A stretch of 64,000 nucleotides of DNA. It comes from Escherichia coli (lineage in GTDB: Bacteria > Pseudomonadota > Gammaproteobacteria > Enterobacterales > Enterobacteriaceae). Positions 13,836-61,013 of the stretch are shown one piece after another. A program made the position numbers and the translations under genes. The stretch lies in assembly GCF_022846255.1 (NCBI RefSeq), contig NZ_AP025682.1; one strand, given 5' to 3'. The notes beneath the pieces are model-generated. The model searched no databases. It saw nothing but the letters and a program-made list of their open reading frames with translations, and was not told where the DNA came from. Within the stretch, counting starts at the first letter, position 1. Every line of letters begins with the position of its first letter.

Positions 13836-13995
13836 GGGTTATTCCTTATCTATCTAATAACGTTGAGTTTTCTGGAACCTGTCCCATTGAACTCTCACCG
13901 GAAAGCTCAATAAGACAGGTTCTACGTTTAGTTGCCGCGCTTTTATATGCGCTTGATTTACAACATCTTCTGGATAATTTTTACCAGAAAAATCA

Positions 13996-25212: not shown

Positions 25213-25690
<478 letters not shown>

Positions 25691-25749
25691 TGTCTTAAAC
25701 CTATAAAAAAGGCGCAGAATCCTGCGCCTTTTACTTCAACTGTTAGCTT

Positions 25750-28455
25750 TTATTGCAGGCGGCCATGGCACTGCTTGTATTTTTTACCAGAACCACACGG
25801 GCAAGGATCGTTACGTCCTACTTTGCGTTCACCGGTTTGCGCCGCCAGTGCAGCTGCGGCTGCAGAGTCGTCATCCTGATGGCTAAGCTGCTGCATTTGC
25901 GCTAAACGCTCGGCTTCCATACGACGCTGTTGTTCCAGCTCCTCAACCTCTTCAGGCATACGTACCTGAACTTTGCTCAGCGTGCTGATAACTTCATATT
26001 TTAACGACTCCAGCATCGCTGCAAACATGGAGAACGATTCACGTTTGTATTCCTGCTTCGGATCTTTCTGTGCATAGCCACGCAGGTGGATACCCTGACG
26101 CAGATAGTCCATCGCAGCCAGGTGCTCTTTCCACAGAGAGTCAAGCGTTTGCAGCATGACGCCTTTCTCGAAGTGACGCATCATCTCAGCACCAACCACT
26201 TCTTCTTTACGCTGATACACTTCGATGGACTGTGCCAGAATGCGCTCACGCAGCGTCTCTTCATGCAGTTCTGGTTCTTTATCCAGCCACTCGGCAATTG
26301 GCAAATCGAGGTCGAAATCGTTCTTCAGACGTTCCTGCAGCCCCGGAATATCCCACATTTCTTCCAGCGACTGTGGCGGAATGTAGGCATCAATGGTGGC
26401 TTTGAACACATCTTCACGAATGCTGTTGATGGTTTCGCTCACATCGCTGACATCCAGCAGTTCGTTACGCTGGGAGTAAATGGCGCGACGCTGATCGTTA
26501 GCCACGTCATCATATTCCAGCAGTTGCTTACGAATGTCGAAGTTACGGCTTTCAACTTTACGCTGGGCGTTGGCAATCGCTTTGGTCACCCACGGGTGCT
26601 CAATGGCTTCGCCTGGCTTCATACCCAGTTTACGCATCATGCCGGATACTCGGTCGGAAGCAAAAATACGCATCAGCGCATCTTCCATCGACAGGTAGAA
26701 ACGGGAAGAACCAGCATCCCCCTGACGACCAGAACGACCGCGCAGCTGGTTATCGATACGACGGGATTCGTGACGTTCAGTACCGATGATATGCAGGCCA
26801 CCTGCTGCCAGTACCGCATCGTGACGTACCTGCCAGTCGGCTTTAATTTTTTCAATTTGCTCTGCAGTCGGATTTTCCAGCGCGGCAACTTCTGCCTGCC
26901 AGCTACCACCGAGCACAATATCGGTACCACGACCCGCCATGTTGGTCGCGATAGTCACCGCAGCCGGGTAACCTGCCTGAGCAACAATCGCCGCTTCGTT
27001 GGCATGGAATTTGGCGTTCAGGACGTTGTGCTTAATACCGGCTTTGGTCAGTTCATTTGACACCAGCTCCGATTTTTCGATGGAGATTGTACCCACCAGC
27101 ACCGGCTGGCCTTTCGCAGTACGTTCTTTGATATCTTCAATGATCGCCTGAATTTTTTCCGCTTCAGTCATGTAGACCAGGTCCGGCAAATCTTTACGAA
27201 TCATTGGACGGTTGGTCGGAACAACGACAGTATCCAGCTTATAGATGGAGCTGAATTCGAAAGCTTCGGTATCAGCAGTACCAGTCATCCCCGCCAGTTT
27301 TTCATACAGACGGAAGTAGTTCTGGAAGGTGATCGAAGCCAGCGTTTGGTTTTCGTTCTGGATCTGCACACCTTCTTTCGCTTCCACAGCCTGGTGCAGA
27401 CCATCGGACCAGCGACGGCCCTGCATGGTACGACCGGTGTGTTCGTCAACGATGATAACTTCACCATCTTTAACGATGTAGTCGACGTCGCGGGTAAACA
27501 GCGCATGAGCGCGCAGCGCCGCCGTTACGTGGTGCATCAGCATGATGTTGGCCGGAGAGTACAGAGACTCACCTTCATCCATGATGCCTTCTTTAACCAG
27601 CAGTTCTTCAATCAGAACCAGACCACGTTCGGTCAGGTTCACCTGGCGAGATTTTTCATCCACCGAGAAGTGGCCTTCGCCCTGGAAGGTTTCGGAGTCT
27701 TCTTTTTCCTGACGGATCAGGTGCGGAATAATTTTATTCACGCGTTTATACATTTCCGAGCTGTCTTCTGCTGGGCCGGAAATGATCAGCGGTGTACGCG
27801 CTTCATCGATGAGGATGGAGTCCACTTCGTCCACCAGCGCATAGTGCAGTTTACGTTGTACACGTTCTTCAGGGCTGAATGCCATGTTGTCGCGCAGGTA
27901 GTCAAAGCCGTATTCGTTGTTCGTACCGTAAGTGATGTCAGCAGCGTAGGCTTCACGCTTTGCCGGTGCTGGCATGCCCGGTAGGTTGATACCGACAGTC
28001 AGGCCAAGGAATTCAAACAGCGGACGGTTGTTTTCGGCGTCACGTTGCGCCAGGTAGTCGTTGACGGTAACTACGTGTACGCCTTTACCGGTTAGTGCGT
28101 TCAGGTAAGCAGGCAGCGTTGCGGTCAGGGTTTTACCTTCACCGGTACGCATTTCGGCGATGCAGCGTTCGTTAAGAACCATACCGCCGAGTAACTGAAC
28201 GTCGAAGTGACGCATGCCAAAGACGCGCTTACTTGCCTCACGCACCACGGCGAAAGCTTCCGGGATCAGATTTTCCAGCACTTCGCCTTTTTCCAGACGC
28301 GCACGAAACTCTGCGGTTTTCCCTTTCAGTTCTTCGTCGGAGAGTTTTTCCATCTCCGGTTCCATGGCATTGATGATGTTGACCACTTTGCGCATCCGGC
28401 GCAGGGTGCGATCGTTACGACTACCGAAAACTTTAGTTAATAATTTGATTAGCAT
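25750..28455 (-). CDS. secA: preprotein translocase ATPase SecA (901 aa)
   Basis: Full-length match including C-terminal zinc-binding [14 protein letters not shown]. Confidence 0.97.
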
Positions 28456-30277: not shown

Positions 30278-31429
30278 TTAATCAGCTTGCTTACGCAGGA
30301 ATGCTGGGATATCCAGATAATCCGGCTCTTTCGCAGTTTGCGGCGCATTGTCATTCACGACTTTAGCAACCGGCTTCTGCTCCTGGGTCAGCGGAGCCAT
30401 ACCGTGCTGCTGGTAGCGATCCATCACTGGCTGCTGAACCTGCTTATTGGTCACCAGAGTGATTTCAGGACGTTTGTCCATGCCGATACCTGTCGCAACA
30501 ACAGTTACGCGCAGTTCGTCATTCATATCCGGGTCAAGAGAAGTACCGATAACCACGGTCGCGTTGTCGGAAGCAAATGCACGGATGGTGTTACCTACCG
30601 TTTCGAACTCATCCAGACGCAGGTCGAAGCCCGCTGTGATGTTTACCAGTACGCCGCGTGCGCCAGACAGGTCGATATCTTCCAGCAGCGGAGAAGAGAT
30701 AGCCATTTCAGCAGCTTCTTCCGCACGGTCTTCACCGCTCGCCACGCCAGAACCCATCATTGCGTAGCCCATTTCAGACATTACGGTGCGTACGTCTGCA
30801 AAGTCCACGTTCATCAAACCCGGACGAGTAATCAGTTCGGCGATACCTTGCACAGCGCCTTTCAGTACATCGTTCGCTGCGCCAAACGCATCCAGCAGGG
30901 AGATACCACGGCCCAGAACTTTCAGCAGTTTGTCGTTCGGGATAGTGATCAGAGAGTCCACATGCTTGGACAGTTCAGTGATCCCCTGCTCCGCGAATGC
31001 CATACGCTTCTTGCCTTCAAAGTTGAAGGGCTTAGTGACGACAGCAACGGTCAGGATACCCAAATCTTTTGCCACTTCAGCGACGACTGGTGCTGCACCT
31101 GTACCGGTACCACCACCCATACCCGCAGCAATAAAGACCATGTCTGCACCTTCCAGCGCCGCACGCAGTGCATCGCGATCCTCATCAGCCGCATTGCGGC
31201 CAACTTCTGGATTAGCGCCAGCTCCCAGTCCTTTGGTGATACCGCTACCGATTTGAATCGTCTGTCCAACCGCTGTTTTACGCAGCGCTTGTGCATCGGT
31301 ATTTACCGCGAAGAATTCAACACCTTCAATGCGCTCGCGCACCATGTGTTCAACAGCATTACCGCCGCCGCCGCCGACGCCGATGACTTTAATCACCGCG
31401 TCATTGGTAAGTTCCATTGGTTCAAACAT
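30278..31429 (-). CDS. ftsZ: cell division GTPase FtsZ (383 aa)
   Basis: Tubulin signature GGGTGTG; full-length match. Confidence 0.98.
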
Positions 31430-31489
31430 AGTTTCTCTCCGATTTGTGCCTGTCGCCTGAGGCCGTAATCATCGTCGGCCTCATAAAAA

Positions 31490-32752
31490 TTAAAACTCTT
31501 TTCGCAGCCAACTATTGAGTCGCTTGATCCACGAGCCAACTGATGCTGTAACACGTTTTTCTACTTCAGCTTCACCGTTAAGATGTGACTCTTTCCCGTA
31601 ATGAAGCAATCCCACCGCCGTCGAATAATACGGCTCCTGAGCATAATCCGTTAAACCGGTAATGTTCAGCGGCGCGCCGATACGCACCTGCGTATGAAAC
31701 ACGCGCTGAGCACAGGCTGCAAGACCTTCGATCTGCGCTGCGCCACCGGTTAATACAATGCCTGCCGCCAGGTGATGTTTAACCCCTTGTTGGCGAAGCT
31801 TTTCCTGCAACTGCAATATCTCTTCGTTGACCAGATTGAGCAGCTCGGTATAGCGCGGCTCGATCACCTCTGCCAGGGTCTGACGTTGCAGACTCCGCGG
31901 CGGACGACCGCCTACGCTCGGCACTTCCACGCTCTCATCTTTTCCAACGATGGAGCCCAGCGCACAACCGTGGCGAACTTTAATCGCTTCGGCGTCACTT
32001 GGCGGTGTGCCAAAGGCGTAAGCGATATCACTGGTCACGACATTGCCAGCATAAGGAATTACCTTCGTGTGGCGCAATGCCCCACCGGTATAAACGGCGA
32101 TATCCATTGTACCACCACCGATATCGACAACGCAGACACCCAGTTCACGTTCATCTTCCGTCAATACCGAATAACTTGATGCCAGTCCGGCAAATATCAG
32201 TTGGTCAACTTTCAGCCCACAACGTTCAACCGCTTTGACGATGTTTTTCGCCATATCGTTGTGACATGTGATCAGGTGCACTTTTGCCTGCATCCGCACG
32301 CCCGAAAGTCCTACCGGATTCTTGATCCCTTCCTGATAGTCAATCGCATACTCTTGCGGGATCACATGCAGCACACGATGCTCATCGCGCACACGCACCG
32401 ATTTCGCGGTATGGACGACGTTTTCCACATCTTCTTGCGTCACTTCTTCTTCAGAAATAGGCACCATACCAATTTCATTCTGGCAGCTGATGTGCTTACC
32501 AGAAAGCGCCAGATATACCGAAGAGATCTGACAATCTGCCATCAATTCTGCCTGGTCAATGGCGCGTTGTACGCACTTGACCACGGATTCGAGGTCGTTC
32601 ACCCCGCCTTTATCCATACCACGCGACGGGCAGCTGCCCACGCCAATGATATTGACCATACCGTCGGGCAGAACTTCCCCTACTAAAGCGGCAACCTTCG
32701 CGGTACCAATCTCCAGTCCTACTACCAGTTTTCTGTCCGTCGCCTTGATCAT
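31490..32752 (-). CDS. ftsA: cell division protein FtsA (420 aa)
   Basis: Actin-like ATPase, full-length match. Confidence 0.97.
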
Positions 32753-52366: not shown

Positions 52367-53023
52367 ACTTAACTCCACTGTCACACTTAACTCCCTTTCC
52401 CTTATTGGAATGCAGAGAAATAATCCTCGAGAATATGATTTATCATGCATATAAAATAAGAAAAAGCAAAATGAGTAAAATTAGGAAAACATAAAGATAC
52501 AGGTTCTGATAAAAACAGAATCCACTGCCGAGCAAAGAGTTATTTACTACAGCATAATAATCCATAATGTTTTTGTTGCGAAAACAATCTAATCATAACT
52601 ACCACGAATACTCAATCATCCACAAAATGGATTAAATGTGCTTTTTAATAATTAATTTATATGTTTAATGCATTAATTCTTAACATTAATTGATCAATAA
52701 TATTCAGCAAATGAATATCAAAAAATTCGCAAAACATATAATTCAATACAAATCATCAAGATAGGTTTTGCAACGCGTGCATTTTATCCCCCTTTCCCTC
52801 GTTGATTAGATGCAAAAAATTATTCTGAAATATGTCAACCGATGAAAAGCATCGGCGGTTAAGCAGAAATTAATATCGCTTGTTTTAACCACCGCAGCAC
52901 AATTAGCTAATTTTACGGATGCCGAACTCACAATGGCGTGACGTTTTTATTGCTTCAGGGTTGACATCCGTTTTTGTATCCAGTAACTCTAAAAGCATAT
53001 CGCATTCATCTGGAGCTGATTTA

Positions 53024-53110
53024 ATGACTCACATCGTTCGCTTTATCGGTCTACTACTACTAAACGCATCTTCTTTGCGCGGTAGACGAGTGAGCGGCAT
53101 CCAGCATTAA
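53024..53110 (+). CDS. leuL: leu operon leader peptide (28 aa)
   Basis: [28 protein letters not shown] with four consecutive Leu codons; followed by attenuator hairpin. Confidence 0.9.
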
Positions 53111-53130
53111 GCCAGCACGCAGTCAAACAA

Positions 53131-53158
53131 AAACCCGCGCCATTGCGCGGGTTTTTTT
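53131..53158 (+). terminator. leu attenuator terminator
   Basis: aaacccgcgccattgcgcgggttttttt: GC stem followed by T7 run, 20 nt after leuL stop. Confidence 0.9.
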
Positions 53159-55866: not shown

Positions 55867-57883
<2,017 letters not shown>

Positions 57884-57917
57884 TTTGTACACCGTCCGGC
57901 ACTCAATCGCCAAAAAG

Positions 57918-58143
57918 AAAAAAGCCAGCAGATAATCACTGCTGGCGTGGCGATTAACACCAATACTCAGTCACACATGATGTCCGCAAATCAGTAGTCA
58001 GAATGACTCCCCTCCCACTGCATCAGTTCTTCAAGCATGGTTAATCGTTGTGGGACGCTTAACCAACGCAACCAGCACAACTTCGCTATCGCGGTAAAAT
58101 AGTGCTGATAAAACTGACGCATGGGGCACCTCCTTGCTTCATC
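57918..58143 (-). ncRNA. sgrS: dual-function small RNA SgrS (glucose-phosphate stress)
   Basis: Minus strand reads gatgaagcaaggaggtgccccatgcgtcag... at the 5' end; conserved seed catcatgtgtgactgagtattggtg; 3' hairpin cagcagtgattatctgctgg plus U-tract; divergent from sgrR. Confidence 0.85.
57991..58122 (-). CDS. sgrT: SgrT small protein (43 aa) encoded within SgrS
   Basis: MRQFYQHYFTAIAKLCWLRWLSVPQRLTMLEELMQWEGSHSDY; the 83-aa track ORF is an upstream extension beyond the sRNA 5' end. Confidence 0.8.
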   Translation of the reverse strand: MRQFYQHYFTAIAKLCWLRWLSVPQRLTMLEELMQWEGSHSDY

Positions 58144-58210
58144 GTTAGGAATTATTGACTTAATATAGGGAAAATAAAATTGCTGTCTTTTGCGCAGGAG
58201 TTCCCCTTTT

Positions 58211-59866
58211 ATGCCATCTGCTCGTCTGCAACAACAGTTCATCCGCCTGTGGCAATGCTGCGAGGGTAAATCTCAGGAGACCACGCTCAACGAACTGGCA
58301 GCGTTACTGAGTTGCTCGCGTCGTCATATGCGCACCCTGCTCAACACCATGCAGGATCGCGGCTGGCTGACGTGGGAAGCGGAAGTCGGGCGCGGTAAAC
58401 GTTCACGCCTGACATTCCTCTATACCGGGCTGGCGCTTCAGCAACAGCGGGCGGAAGACCTGCTGGAGCAGGATCGTATCGACCAACTAGTGCAGTTGGT
58501 TGGCGACAAAGCGACTGTGCGGCAAATGCTGGTTTCTCATCTGGGCCGCAGCTTCCGCCAGGGGCGGCACATCCTGCGCGTGCTCTACTATCGTCCGTTG
58601 CGTAATCTGCTACCTGGCAGCGCATTGCGCCGTTCTGAAACCCATATCGCCCGGCAAATCTTCAGTTCGCTAACGCGCATAAATGAGGAAAATGGGGAAC
58701 TGGAAGCAGACATCGCACACCACTGGCAGCAAATATCACCGCTTCACTGGCGTTTCTTTTTGCGTCCAGGAGTCCATTTTCACCATGGTCGTGAACTGGA
58801 AATGGACGATGTGATCGCCTCTTTAAAACGAATCAATACGCTTCCGCTCTATTCGCATATTGCTAACATTGTGTCGCCGACGCCCTGGACGCTGGATATC
58901 CATCTCACGCAACCGGACCGCTGGTTGCCGTTACTGCTGGGGCAAGTTCCGGCAATGATCCTGCCGCGCGAATGGGAAACCCTCAGTAACTTTGCCAGCC
59001 ATCCCATCGGCACCGGTCCGTATGCGGTGATCCGCAACAGCACCAATCAACTGAAAATTCAGGCATTCGATGACTTCTTCGGTTACCGGGCATTAATCGA
59101 CGAAGTTAACGTCTGGGTTCTGCCGGAAATTGCCGACGAGCCAGCCGGAGGGCTGATGCTAAAAGGTCCACAGGGCGAGGAAAAAGAGATTGAAAGCCGC
59201 CTGGAGGAAGGTTGCTACTATTTACTGTTCGACAGCCGCACCCATCGAGGGGCGAATCAGCAAGTCAGAGACTGGGTAAGCTATGTGCTTTCTCCGACGA
59301 ATCTGGTCTATTTCGCTGAGGAACAGTACCAGCAACTGTGGTTCCCGGCTTATGGACTGCTCCCCCGTTGGCACCATGCCCGCACCATAAAGAGCGAAAA
59401 ACCGGCTGGTCTGGAAAGCCTCACCCTGACCTTTTATCAGGATCACAGCGAGCATCGGGTGATTGCCGGGATCATGCAGCAGATTCTGGCAAGTCACCAG
59501 GTCACGCTGGAAATCAAAGAGATCAGCTACGATCAGTGGCATGAAGGAGAGATCGAGAGCGATATCTGGCTTAACAGCGCCAACTTTACGCTGCCGCTGG
59601 ATTTTTCGCTGTTCGCGCACTTGTGCGAGGTGCCGCTGCTCCAACACTGTATTCCGATCGACTGGCAAGCCGACGCCGCCCGCTGGCGCAATGGCGAAAT
59701 GAACCTGGCGAACTGGTGCCAGCAACTGGTCGCCAGCAAAGCAATGGTGCCACTTATCCACCACTGGCTGATCATTCAGGGGCAACGTAGTATGCGCGGC
59801 CTGCGCATGAACACCCTCGGCTGGTTCGATTTTAAATCAGCGTGGTTTGCACCACCGGATCCATGA
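58211..59866 (+). CDS. sgrR: transcriptional regulator SgrR (551 aa)
   Basis: [33 protein letters not shown]... with N-terminal HTH and solute-binding-like domain. Confidence 0.95.
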
Positions 59867-59894
59867 TTGCTGGTTGATAACAAAATCACTACAC

Positions 59895-60029
59895 TAACGC
59901 CGTTCTCAACGGGGTGCCACGCAGCCGCGTGCGCTGAGAAAATACCCGTCGAACCTGATCCGGATAACGCCGGCGAAGGGATTTGAGGCTCCTTCTCAAG
60001 TCCTTTGCCACTCTTTTGTGAGGTGCAAA
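59895..60029 (+). promoter_or_regulatory. TPP riboswitch (thi-box) in the thiBPQ leader (SroA region)
   Basis: ggggtgccac...gctgagaaaatacccgtcgaacctgatccggataacgccggcgaaggga matches the THI element, immediately upstream of thiB. Confidence 0.85.
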
Positions 60030-61013
60030 GTGTTAAAAAAATGTCTTCCCCTGCTGTTGCTGTGCACAGCGCCTGTTTTCGCTAAACCTGTTCTGACTGT
60101 TTATACCTACGATTCCTTTGCCGCTGACTGGGGACCTGGTCCGGTAGTCAAAAAAGCCTTTGAAGCAGACTGTAATTGCGAACTGAAACTGGTGGCGCTG
60201 GAAGATGGCGTTTCGCTTCTCAACCGTCTGCGGATGGAAGGCAAAAACAGTAAAGCCGATGTGGTGCTGGGGCTGGATAACAATCTGTTAGACGCCGCCA
60301 GCAAAACAGGGCTGTTTGCTAAAAGCGGTGTGGCAGCGGAAGCCGTTAACGTTCCTGGCGGCTGGAATAATGACACTTTCGTACCGTATGATTACGGCTA
60401 TTTCGCCTTCGTCTATGACAAGAACAAACTGAAAAATCCGCCGCAAAGCCTGAAAGAACTGGTTGAGAGCGATCAAAACTGGCGGGTGATTTATGAAGAT
60501 CCACGTACCAGTACACCGGGGCTGGGTCTGTTGCTATGGATGCAAAAAGTCTATGGCGATAACGCCCCGCAAGCCTGGCAGAAACTGGCGAAGAAAACTG
60601 TCACGGTCACCAAAGGCTGGAGCGAAGCCTACGGCCTGTTTTTAAAAGGCGAAAGCGATCTGGTACTGAGTTACACCACCTCTCCGGCTTATCACATTCT
60701 CGAAGAGAAGAAAGATAACTACGCCGCCACAAACTTTATCGAAGGTCACTATCTGCAGGTGGAAGTTGCCGCCCGCACCGCTGCCAGCAAGCAGCCAGAG
60801 CTGGCGCAAAAATTCCTCCAGTTTATGGTTTCTCCGGCTTTTCAGAATGCGATCCCAACCGGCAACTGGATGTATCCGGTAGCAAACGTCACTCTGCCTG
60901 CAGGATTTGAACAATTGACCAAACCAGCCACCACACTAGAGTTCACACCCGCCGAAGTGGCGGCACAACGTCAGGCATGGATTAGCGAATGGCAACGCGC
61001 CGTCAGCCGTTAA
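60030..61013 (+). CDS. thiB: thiamine ABC transporter periplasmic binding protein (327 aa)
   Basis: GTG start giving (M)LKKCLPLLLLCTAPVFA signal peptide. Confidence 0.93.
   Translation: MLKKCLPLLLLCTAPVFAKPVLTVYTYDSFAADWGPGPVVKKAFEADCNCELKLVALEDGVSLLNRLRMEGKNSKADVVLGLDNNLLDAASKTGLFAKSGVAAEAVNVPGGWNNDTFVPYDYGYFAFVYDKNKLKNPPQSLKELVESDQNWRVIYEDPRTSTPGLGLLLWMQKVYGDNAPQAWQKLAKKTVTVTKGWSEAYGLFLKGESDLVLSYTTSPAYHILEEKKDNYAATNFIEGHYLQVEVAARTAASKQPELAQKFLQFMVSPAFQNAIPTGNWMYPVANVTLPAGFEQLTKPATTLEFTPAEVAAQRQAWISEWQRAVSR

Follow-up and report, generated by a model that had tools for sequence, protein, structure and literature searches.

In Escherichia coli K-12, the sugar efflux gene setA (1,179 bp) sits between sgrS/sgrT and leuD. 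In the E. coli DNA considered here, a 64,000-nt stretch of contig NZ_AP025682.1 (assembly GCF_022846255.1; hereafter the window), a first-pass annotation made from the sequence alone noticed that setA is missing from this place. It described the K-12 arrangement correctly and raised the question of whether the absence is ancestral or results from a deletion. The reading supported below, to which a probability of roughly 85% is given, is that the window carries a widespread setA-less leuD–sgrS allele that very probably represents the ancestral state of E. coli and is not specific to this strain.

Gene Order and sgrS in the Window

Genes in the window follow one another in the order leuB, leuC, and leuD (plus strand), sgrS/sgrT (minus strand), sgrR (plus strand), a TPP riboswitch, and thiB (plus strand). 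The features at and around the junction are as follows:

57278-57883, plus strand: leuD, 3-isopropylmalate dehydratase small subunit, with the stop codon TAG at 57881-57883
57667-57883, plus strand: left homologous arm of the allele block, made up of the final ~215 nt of leuD (approximate boundary)
57884-57916, 33 nt: linker from the leuD stop codon to the SgrS 3′ end; K-12 has setA at this position
57905-57912 and 57948-57955: perfect inverted repeat with 8-bp arms, AATCGCCA/TGGCGATT, on either side of the terminator hairpin
57917-58143, minus strand: sgrS small RNA, full length, CFT073/O157-type allele (Rfam RF00534)
57917-58030, minus strand: 3′ half of sgrS, right homologous arm of the allele block
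57917-57946, minus strand: SgrS intrinsic terminator (stem 57924-57946, 7-nt loop, tail UUUUUUC)
57957-57978, minus strand: SgrS base-pairing (seed) region ATGTGTGACTGAGTATTGGTGT, an exact pattern match, invariant across genera
57991-58122, minus strand: sgrT ORF, 43 aa, intact ATG, MRQFYQHYFTAIAKLCWLRWLSVPQRLTMLEELMQWEGSHSDY, within an 83-aa ORF
58162-58189, minus strand: sgrS promoter hexamers AAGACA-16-TATATT, the same as in K-12
58211-59866, plus strand: sgrR, divergently transcribed activator of sgrS, 98.7% amino acid identity to K-12 SgrR

The leuD product is 99% identical to K-12 LeuD at the amino acid level over residues 1-200. It ends in FMR, as it also does in Citrobacter and Salmonella, while the K-12 protein ends in FMN. 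On the opposite strand, the RNA encoded next to leuD scores 226.6 bits against the Rfam model RF00534 (gathering score 37, E = 2e-64), aligns with model positions 1-232 of 232, and has no non-canonical pairs flagged in this match. The window sgrS is divergent from sgrR and has a conserved promoter; its seed is followed by a Rho-independent terminator with a U-tract, the stem of which comprises 8 bp and is G+C-rich (GCCAGCAG/CTGCTGGC); and the sgrT ORF lies inside the RNA, as befits a dual-function SgrS. Members of this RNA family respond to glucose-phosphate stress by induction and repress ptsG and manXYZ. In strain AR_0017, which is 99.5% identical to the window, sgrT is annotated at the equivalent place. 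The last eight residues of SgrT in the window, WEGSHSDY, presumably differ from those of K-12 SgrT.

The terminator hairpin is enclosed by the perfect inverted repeat, one arm of which belongs to the linker and the other to sgrS, and the arms are paired in the predicted minimum-free-energy folds of both strands. The repeat has been retained in the other setA-less Escherichia species, that of E. albertii containing a G-U pair. No canonical plus-strand terminator is predicted after leuD, and no additional minus-strand terminator is predicted within leuD; leu transcripts meet a predicted composite hairpin, in which the terminator stem stands inside the 8-bp repeat. The repeat might act on the 3′ ends of leu mRNA or on read-through RNA, or it might be due to chance.

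Elsewhere in the window, Rfam matches above the gathering score were obtained for PssrA, STnc40, naRNA4, tp2, and ES036 (listed at 31421-31510, 25705-25774, 25225-25301, 13838-13951, and 7775-7817), and the Leu leader was found at 53010-53158.

Absence of setA in Comparison with K-12

A search of the window for setA, proposed in the first-pass annotation as a check, was performed by tblastn with K-12 SetA as the query (E<1e-10) and gave no match in the 64 kb. In a blastn comparison with a K-12 derivative bearing MG1655 coordinates, homology stops at window position 57877 and restarts at 57918; 40 nt in the window stand at the site of 1,261 nt in K-12. The absence of setA between sgrS and leuD is, thus, confirmed by the coordinates and by both searches, and the gap between the SgrS terminator and the leuD stop codon, initially estimated at about 34 nt, amounts to 33 nt (57884-57916). 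Unlike the K-12-type operon, in which setA directly follows the sgrS terminator on the same strand, the window has the convergent leuD after these 33 nt. Neither direct repeats nor target-site duplications nor IS remnants were found flanking the junction, which bears no deletion scar of an IS element or a transposon, in keeping with the early impression that no scar, IS remnant, or repeat is visible there.

In the passages of PMC4509938 and PMC4021124 that cite Sun and Vanderpool (2011), K-12 setA is described as being expressed via read-through of the sgrS terminator, which bears out the claimed co-transcription of the two genes in K-12. Because K-12 setA is co-transcribed in this way and is absent here, the sgrS transcription unit of the window is altered relative to K-12, just as had been claimed. 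The two loci are alike in sgrR, the promoter hexamers, the 5′ half of sgrS (98%), and the seed, whereas the K-12 operon includes setA and yields a bicistronic read-through product, and the window has neither. They also differ in the terminator itself, where the basal pair is G-C in the window and G-U in K-12 and the tail is U6CU5 in the window and U8 in K-12.

Frequency of the Two States within E. coli

The census covered 5,426 complete E. coli genomes searched by megablast, 5,399 of which had any junction match. The junction is contiguous and setA-less in about 2,160 genomes (2,159-2,160 of 5,426, about 40%) and is split into two places in the remainder of the 5,399. The 1,261-bp setA segment of K-12 was found in 3,242 of the 5,426 genomes, with at least 99% identity in 3,230 of these 3,242. 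Since the counts add up, the setA-less and setA-positive states are essentially mutually exclusive, and, at the sensitivity of megablast, setA has not been relocated in the setA-less genomes.

Among the strains checked individually, CFT073, 042, O157:H7, and IAI39 are setA-less, while K-12 and O104:H4 are setA-positive, as are O111 and O103 strains. We take the former four to belong to phylogroups B2, D, E, and F, respectively, and K-12 and O104:H4 to belong to A and B1. The closest relatives of the window (99.5-99.6% identical) include strain A0 34/86 and O16:H6, both of which are presumably B2, and the window itself is taken to be B2-like. The phylogroup pattern of setA, as given here, is based on these named reference strains and on one paper (PMC6896753).

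A search with the K-12 SetA protein listed at least 120 matches, nearly all of them ~100%-identical E. coli variants. The sole 94% match among those listed, GCA_000619105.1, was considered as a possible divergent Escherichia lineage and rejected: it is a K-12-type setA in its normal context with an internal tandem duplication of ~75 bp (416 aa).

Comparison with Strains CFT073 and O157:H7

The SgrS allele of CFT073 and O157 has been reported to be 88% identical to K-12 SgrS (Horler and Vanderpool 2009, PMC2760817), and setA is drawn in the synteny figure of the same paper. The sgrS locus of CFT073 and O157:H7 is like that of the window: the 3′ half of sgrS is 99-100% identical, and the same setA-less junction and linker are present. 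CFT073 differs in having an IS200C element of ~705 bp in the A/T run at the base of the terminator, an insertion that the window does not have. The insertion site corresponds approximately to window positions 57918-57923, and six U residues are left on the tail of the sRNA. In the avian strain E166, this junction holds an insertion of ~711 bp that carries the annotation of an IS200C transposase.

O157:H7 differs in the start codon of sgrT, which is ATT in place of the ATG at 58120-58122 in the window, where sgrT is intact. The loss of SgrT in O157:H7 has been published (PMC2760817), and the ATT start is confirmed here. Another difference is that O157:H7 carries espY2 downstream of sgrR, and the window does not. 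This T3SS effector gene (570 bp) lies between sgrR and the thiB riboswitch in IAI39 and 042 and is absent from both the window and K-12; its site corresponds approximately to window positions 59867-59899, which makes it a second polymorphism of presence and absence, a few hundred bases off.

The Locus in Other Escherichia Species and Other Genera

Species-representative genomes were scanned with the SgrS seed pattern, and LeuC, LeuD, SetA, SgrR, and ThiB were mapped around the 47 loci obtained. In every non-Escherichia locus extending past the terminator, setA is located directly downstream of sgrS, usually with the convergent leuD next to it. The genera with setA are Citrobacter (many species), Salmonella (arizonae/diarizonae), Klebsiella, Raoultella, Enterobacter, Siccibacter, Superficieibacter, and Pluralibacter. 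In Citrobacter, Salmonella, Klebsiella, and Enterobacter, among others, the flanking genes and their orientation in the sgrR-sgrS-setA-leuD arrangement are as in the window; what the window lacks in comparison with the ancestral Enterobacteriaceae arrangement is setA together with a REP-like spacer, ~1.2-1.4 kb.

Within the genus Escherichia, setA is missing from E. albertii, E. whittamii, Escherichia sp. E1V33, and SCPM-O-B-8794 (the latter labelled E. coli, 91% identical) and is present in Escherichia sp. MOD1-EC7003. The seed-pattern scan recovered no E. fergusonii, S. enterica, or S. bongori and no loci named E. marmotae or E. ruysiae. The setA-less Escherichia loci align with the window straight across the junction without rearrangement. 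The linker that runs for 31-33 nt from the leuD stop codon to the sgrS U-tract, TTTGTACrCCGyCCG(GC)ACTCAATCGyCAAAAAG, is found in the window and is common to AR_0017, O157, E. albertii, E. whittamii, E1V33, and SCPM-O-B-8794, with a few substitutions and a 2-nt indel. Since the linker is both shared and diverged, the junction reflects one old event inherited by several species, and it is because of this age that no scar is visible.

As regards the origin of the linker, the 40-nt linker region was locally aligned, with shuffle controls, to the leuD-to-sgrS interval of 19 setA-positive taxa. On the plus strand, its last ~8-9 nt together with the A-run (U-tract) match the sgrS-setA spacer of Citrobacter (GCCAAAAAGAAAAAA vs. 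GCCAAAACGAAAAAA); the match to Citrobacter covers the sgrS terminator and ~9 nt immediately past its U-tract. The leuD-proximal ~25 nt gave no match to the leuD-to-sgrS interval of any of the 19 taxa, and only the terminator tail is homologous in this alignment. A resemblance seen by eye between the linker and the 3′ coding end of setA in Citrobacter sp. R56 did not reach significance (p about 0.3) and was discarded.

The last 45 nt of sgrS past the seed and the adjoining spacer (window 57912-57956) deserve a separate comment, because both Escherichia variants of this segment have look-alikes in other genera. The K-12-type segment is 93% identical to that of Salmonella arizonae/diarizonae and 87-89% identical to that of some Citrobacter, while the window-type segment is 89-91% identical to that of several other Citrobacter species. 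Segments of 45 nt are too short to separate shared ancestry from convergence.

An Allele Block around setA

The difference between the two states extends beyond setA. K-12 differs from O157 or 042 by 45 mismatches per 1,800 nt over leuC and most of leuD and by 18 mismatches in the last 217 nt of leuD alone (Fisher p = 6e-5). Between the setA-positive and setA-less classes, the 3′ half of sgrS is 76% identical and its 5′ half 98%, and the 3′ part of leuD has diverged by 5-8%. Among the setA-less alleles, the 3′ half of sgrS is 99-100% identical within E. coli and 95.6-97.3% identical to other species, and the 3′ part of leuD of E. coli is 95.6-96% identical among the strains compared and ~91% identical to other species; this is ordinary vertical divergence.

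The setA-positive alleles look different. The 3′ half of sgrS is 100% identical among K-12, O104:H4, and MOD1-EC7003. Between K-12 and MOD1-EC7003, there are only 5 mismatches in 500 nt from the 5′ part of setA to the middle of sgrS and 53 in the next 900 nt (Fisher p = 2e-6); on the sgrS side, where the comparison was made, the block is 99% identical and its flanks 93-94%. The sgrR gene of MOD1-EC7003 is closest to that of E. coli although the block is present, and no MOD1-EC7003-like genome was found among the complete E. coli genomes, the best identity being 94.4%. The contrast between the 99% block and the 93-94% flanks indicates that a block of ~1.6 kb has been exchanged between species by homologous recombination. 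The nucleotide identity of K-12 setA to its outgroup counterparts (78-80% for Citrobacter/Salmonella, 75-76% for Klebsiella/Raoultella) parallels that of sgrR, which argues that setA of K-12 is an Escherichia-lineage ortholog and not a recent import from another genus.

Whether the block, comprising the 3′ end of leuD, setA, and the 3′ half of sgrS, travels among Escherichia species as an allelic cassette is, in our estimate, an even call. The transporter encoded downstream and the 3′ allele of the sRNA may have adapted to each other. A simple history fails to explain all the data, namely the distances of Citrobacter koseri, whose sgrS 3′ half is 74.5% identical to the K-12 type and 84% to the setA-less type, and the terminator look-alikes in other genera.

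Other parts of the neighborhood have their own patterns of identity. Across the 3′ third of sgrR (window 59311-59866), the identity of the window amounts to 93% with K-12 and 98.6% with O104:H4, and strain 042 matches Escherichia sp. E1V33 at 95.8%; for thiB (window 60030-61013), the identity to K-12 is 99.3% in 042 and 94.8% in the window. With identities so discordant with phylogroup, the whole leu-thi interval looks like a recombination mosaic. Over the 3′ end of leuC and the 5′ part of leuD (window 56601-57580), identity to the other E. coli compared is only 94.6-96% for the window and AR_0017, and those other strains reach 96.6-98.7% identity with K-12. CFT073 has the divergent stretch in leuC but not in the leuD 5′ part; the stretch seems to be a divergent patch of its own within part of B2.

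Origin of the setA-less and setA-positive Alleles

The ancestral order in Enterobacteriaceae, as shown by synteny, is sgrR, sgrS, setA, leuD. A single early deletion in Escherichia, which can be placed only roughly on the genus tree, would have taken setA and both spacers and left sgrS convergent with leuD over a linker of ~33 nt, and the resulting setA-less allele would have come down by vertical descent to E. albertii, E. whittamii, other non-coli lineages, and E. coli. The setA-positive state would reside on the ~1.6-kb block, which consists of the end of leuD (~215 nt), setA, and ~100 nt at the 3′ end of sgrS with the SgrT C-terminus and the terminator, and this block would have entered an A/B1-type ancestor via homologous recombination from another Escherichia-lineage donor. 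Ancestral absence and deletion, set against each other at the outset, would then both hold at different depths, the deletion being early in Escherichia and the absence ancestral for E. coli.

A single gain of the setA block on the A/B1 stem, which makes K-12 the changed one within E. coli, is favoured; this gain, as well as the loss early in Escherichia, is supported by the uniformity of the setA alleles in E. coli and by the absence of setA in the strains taken to be B2, D, E, and F and in other species. The acquisition of the SetA efflux transporter by the A/B1 sublineage is described in passages of González-Alba et al. (2019, PMC6896753), and from such a gain it follows that non-A/B1 strains, such as that of the window, would be ancestrally setA-less. 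The pattern of presence and absence of setA is, in this sense, already in the literature, ordinary, and unsurprising to specialists. Those passages do not deal with the junction itself or its occurrence in other Escherichia species, with the sgrS 3′ allele linked to it, or with setA in other genera.

A recent deletion of setA in the window strain or its immediate clone is very improbable: it has in its favor the bare absence relative to K-12 and nothing else, while about 2,160 complete genomes have the identical junction, which recurs with accumulated substitutions in four non-coli Escherichia lineages, the nearest relatives of the window strain are without setA as well, and there are neither repeats nor IS scars. 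An artefact of assembly or coordinates that collapsed setA out of the window has practically no chance of being the explanation, given that the junction is base-for-base the same in thousands of independent complete assemblies.

It is also conceivable that E. coli was ancestrally setA-positive and that the setA-less allele was recombined into B2, D, E, and F from other Escherichia. Blocks at this locus do move between species, as seen for K-12 and MOD1-EC7003, and the surrounding region looks like a mosaic, with discordant sgrR 3′ third and thiB. Such a history is quite unlikely, however, since no setA-less allele of E. coli is near-identical to that of another species (~91% in the leuD 3′ part), the setA-positive alleles are at least 99% uniform in 3,230 of 3,242 genomes, several introgressions would be required as opposed to one gain, and it is a gain in A/B1 that is reconstructed in the relevant passages of PMC6896753. 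A polymorphism that has persisted across species since the Escherichia ancestor, perhaps under niche-dependent selection on SetA and with neither state re-acquired, would account for the deep divergence of the two classes (24% in the sgrS 3′ half, 5-8% in the leuD 3′ part), for the occurrence of both states in more than one Escherichia species, and for the counterparts of both terminator variants in other genera. This, too, is unlikely: a block 99% identical between K-12 and MOD1-EC7003 within flanks of 93-94% speaks for recent exchange and not for independent retention, and the diversity of the block within E. coli is very low. An old setA-less allele, ancestral for E. coli, remains the preferred reading of the window.

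Functional Consequences and Significance

In K-12, termination at sgrS is enhanced under stress, and read-through products constitute only a few percent of SgrS (PMC4509938). SetA aids recovery under certain conditions only, and its role has been called elusive (PMC4021124). The setB gene was found in 5,413 of the 5,426 complete E. coli genomes, i.e., it belongs to the core, and its product shares 52% amino acid identity with SetA. With its promoter, sgrT, seed, and terminator intact, sgrS of the window would function as a stand-alone SgrR-activated gene; residual read-through of the terminator would proceed antisense into the 3′ end of leuD in place of a setA mRNA, and SetA-type efflux would be left to SetB, the paralog of SetA, and to SetC. 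Given the condition-specific role of SetA, the few-percent read-through, and the core status of setB, the consequences for the stress repertoire are probably modest and the loss of efflux relative to K-12 probably small. The first-pass annotation had suggested that the absence of setA changes the stress-response repertoire of this strain; this stands insofar as the locus differs from K-12, but a notable loss in the strain is not supported, the junction being present in ~40% of genomes.

What the locus calls for is caution: K-12 is not the reference state at leuD-sgrS. In most sampled Escherichia lineages and in ~40% of complete E. coli genomes, sgrS is not accompanied by setA and has the other sgrS 3′/SgrT C-terminal allele, so that conclusions about sgrS-setA co-transcription and about SetA in glucose-phosphate stress are limited to A/B1-type lineages. 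If the block is indeed a cassette moving between Escherichia species, the textbook K-12 SgrS 3′ region, the SgrT C-terminus, and the sgrS-setA read-through operon would represent an introgressed minority allele, and a stand-alone sgrS convergent with leuD would be the native Escherichia configuration. The locus would then serve as an example of a small gene cassette tied to an sRNA allele and exchanged across species.
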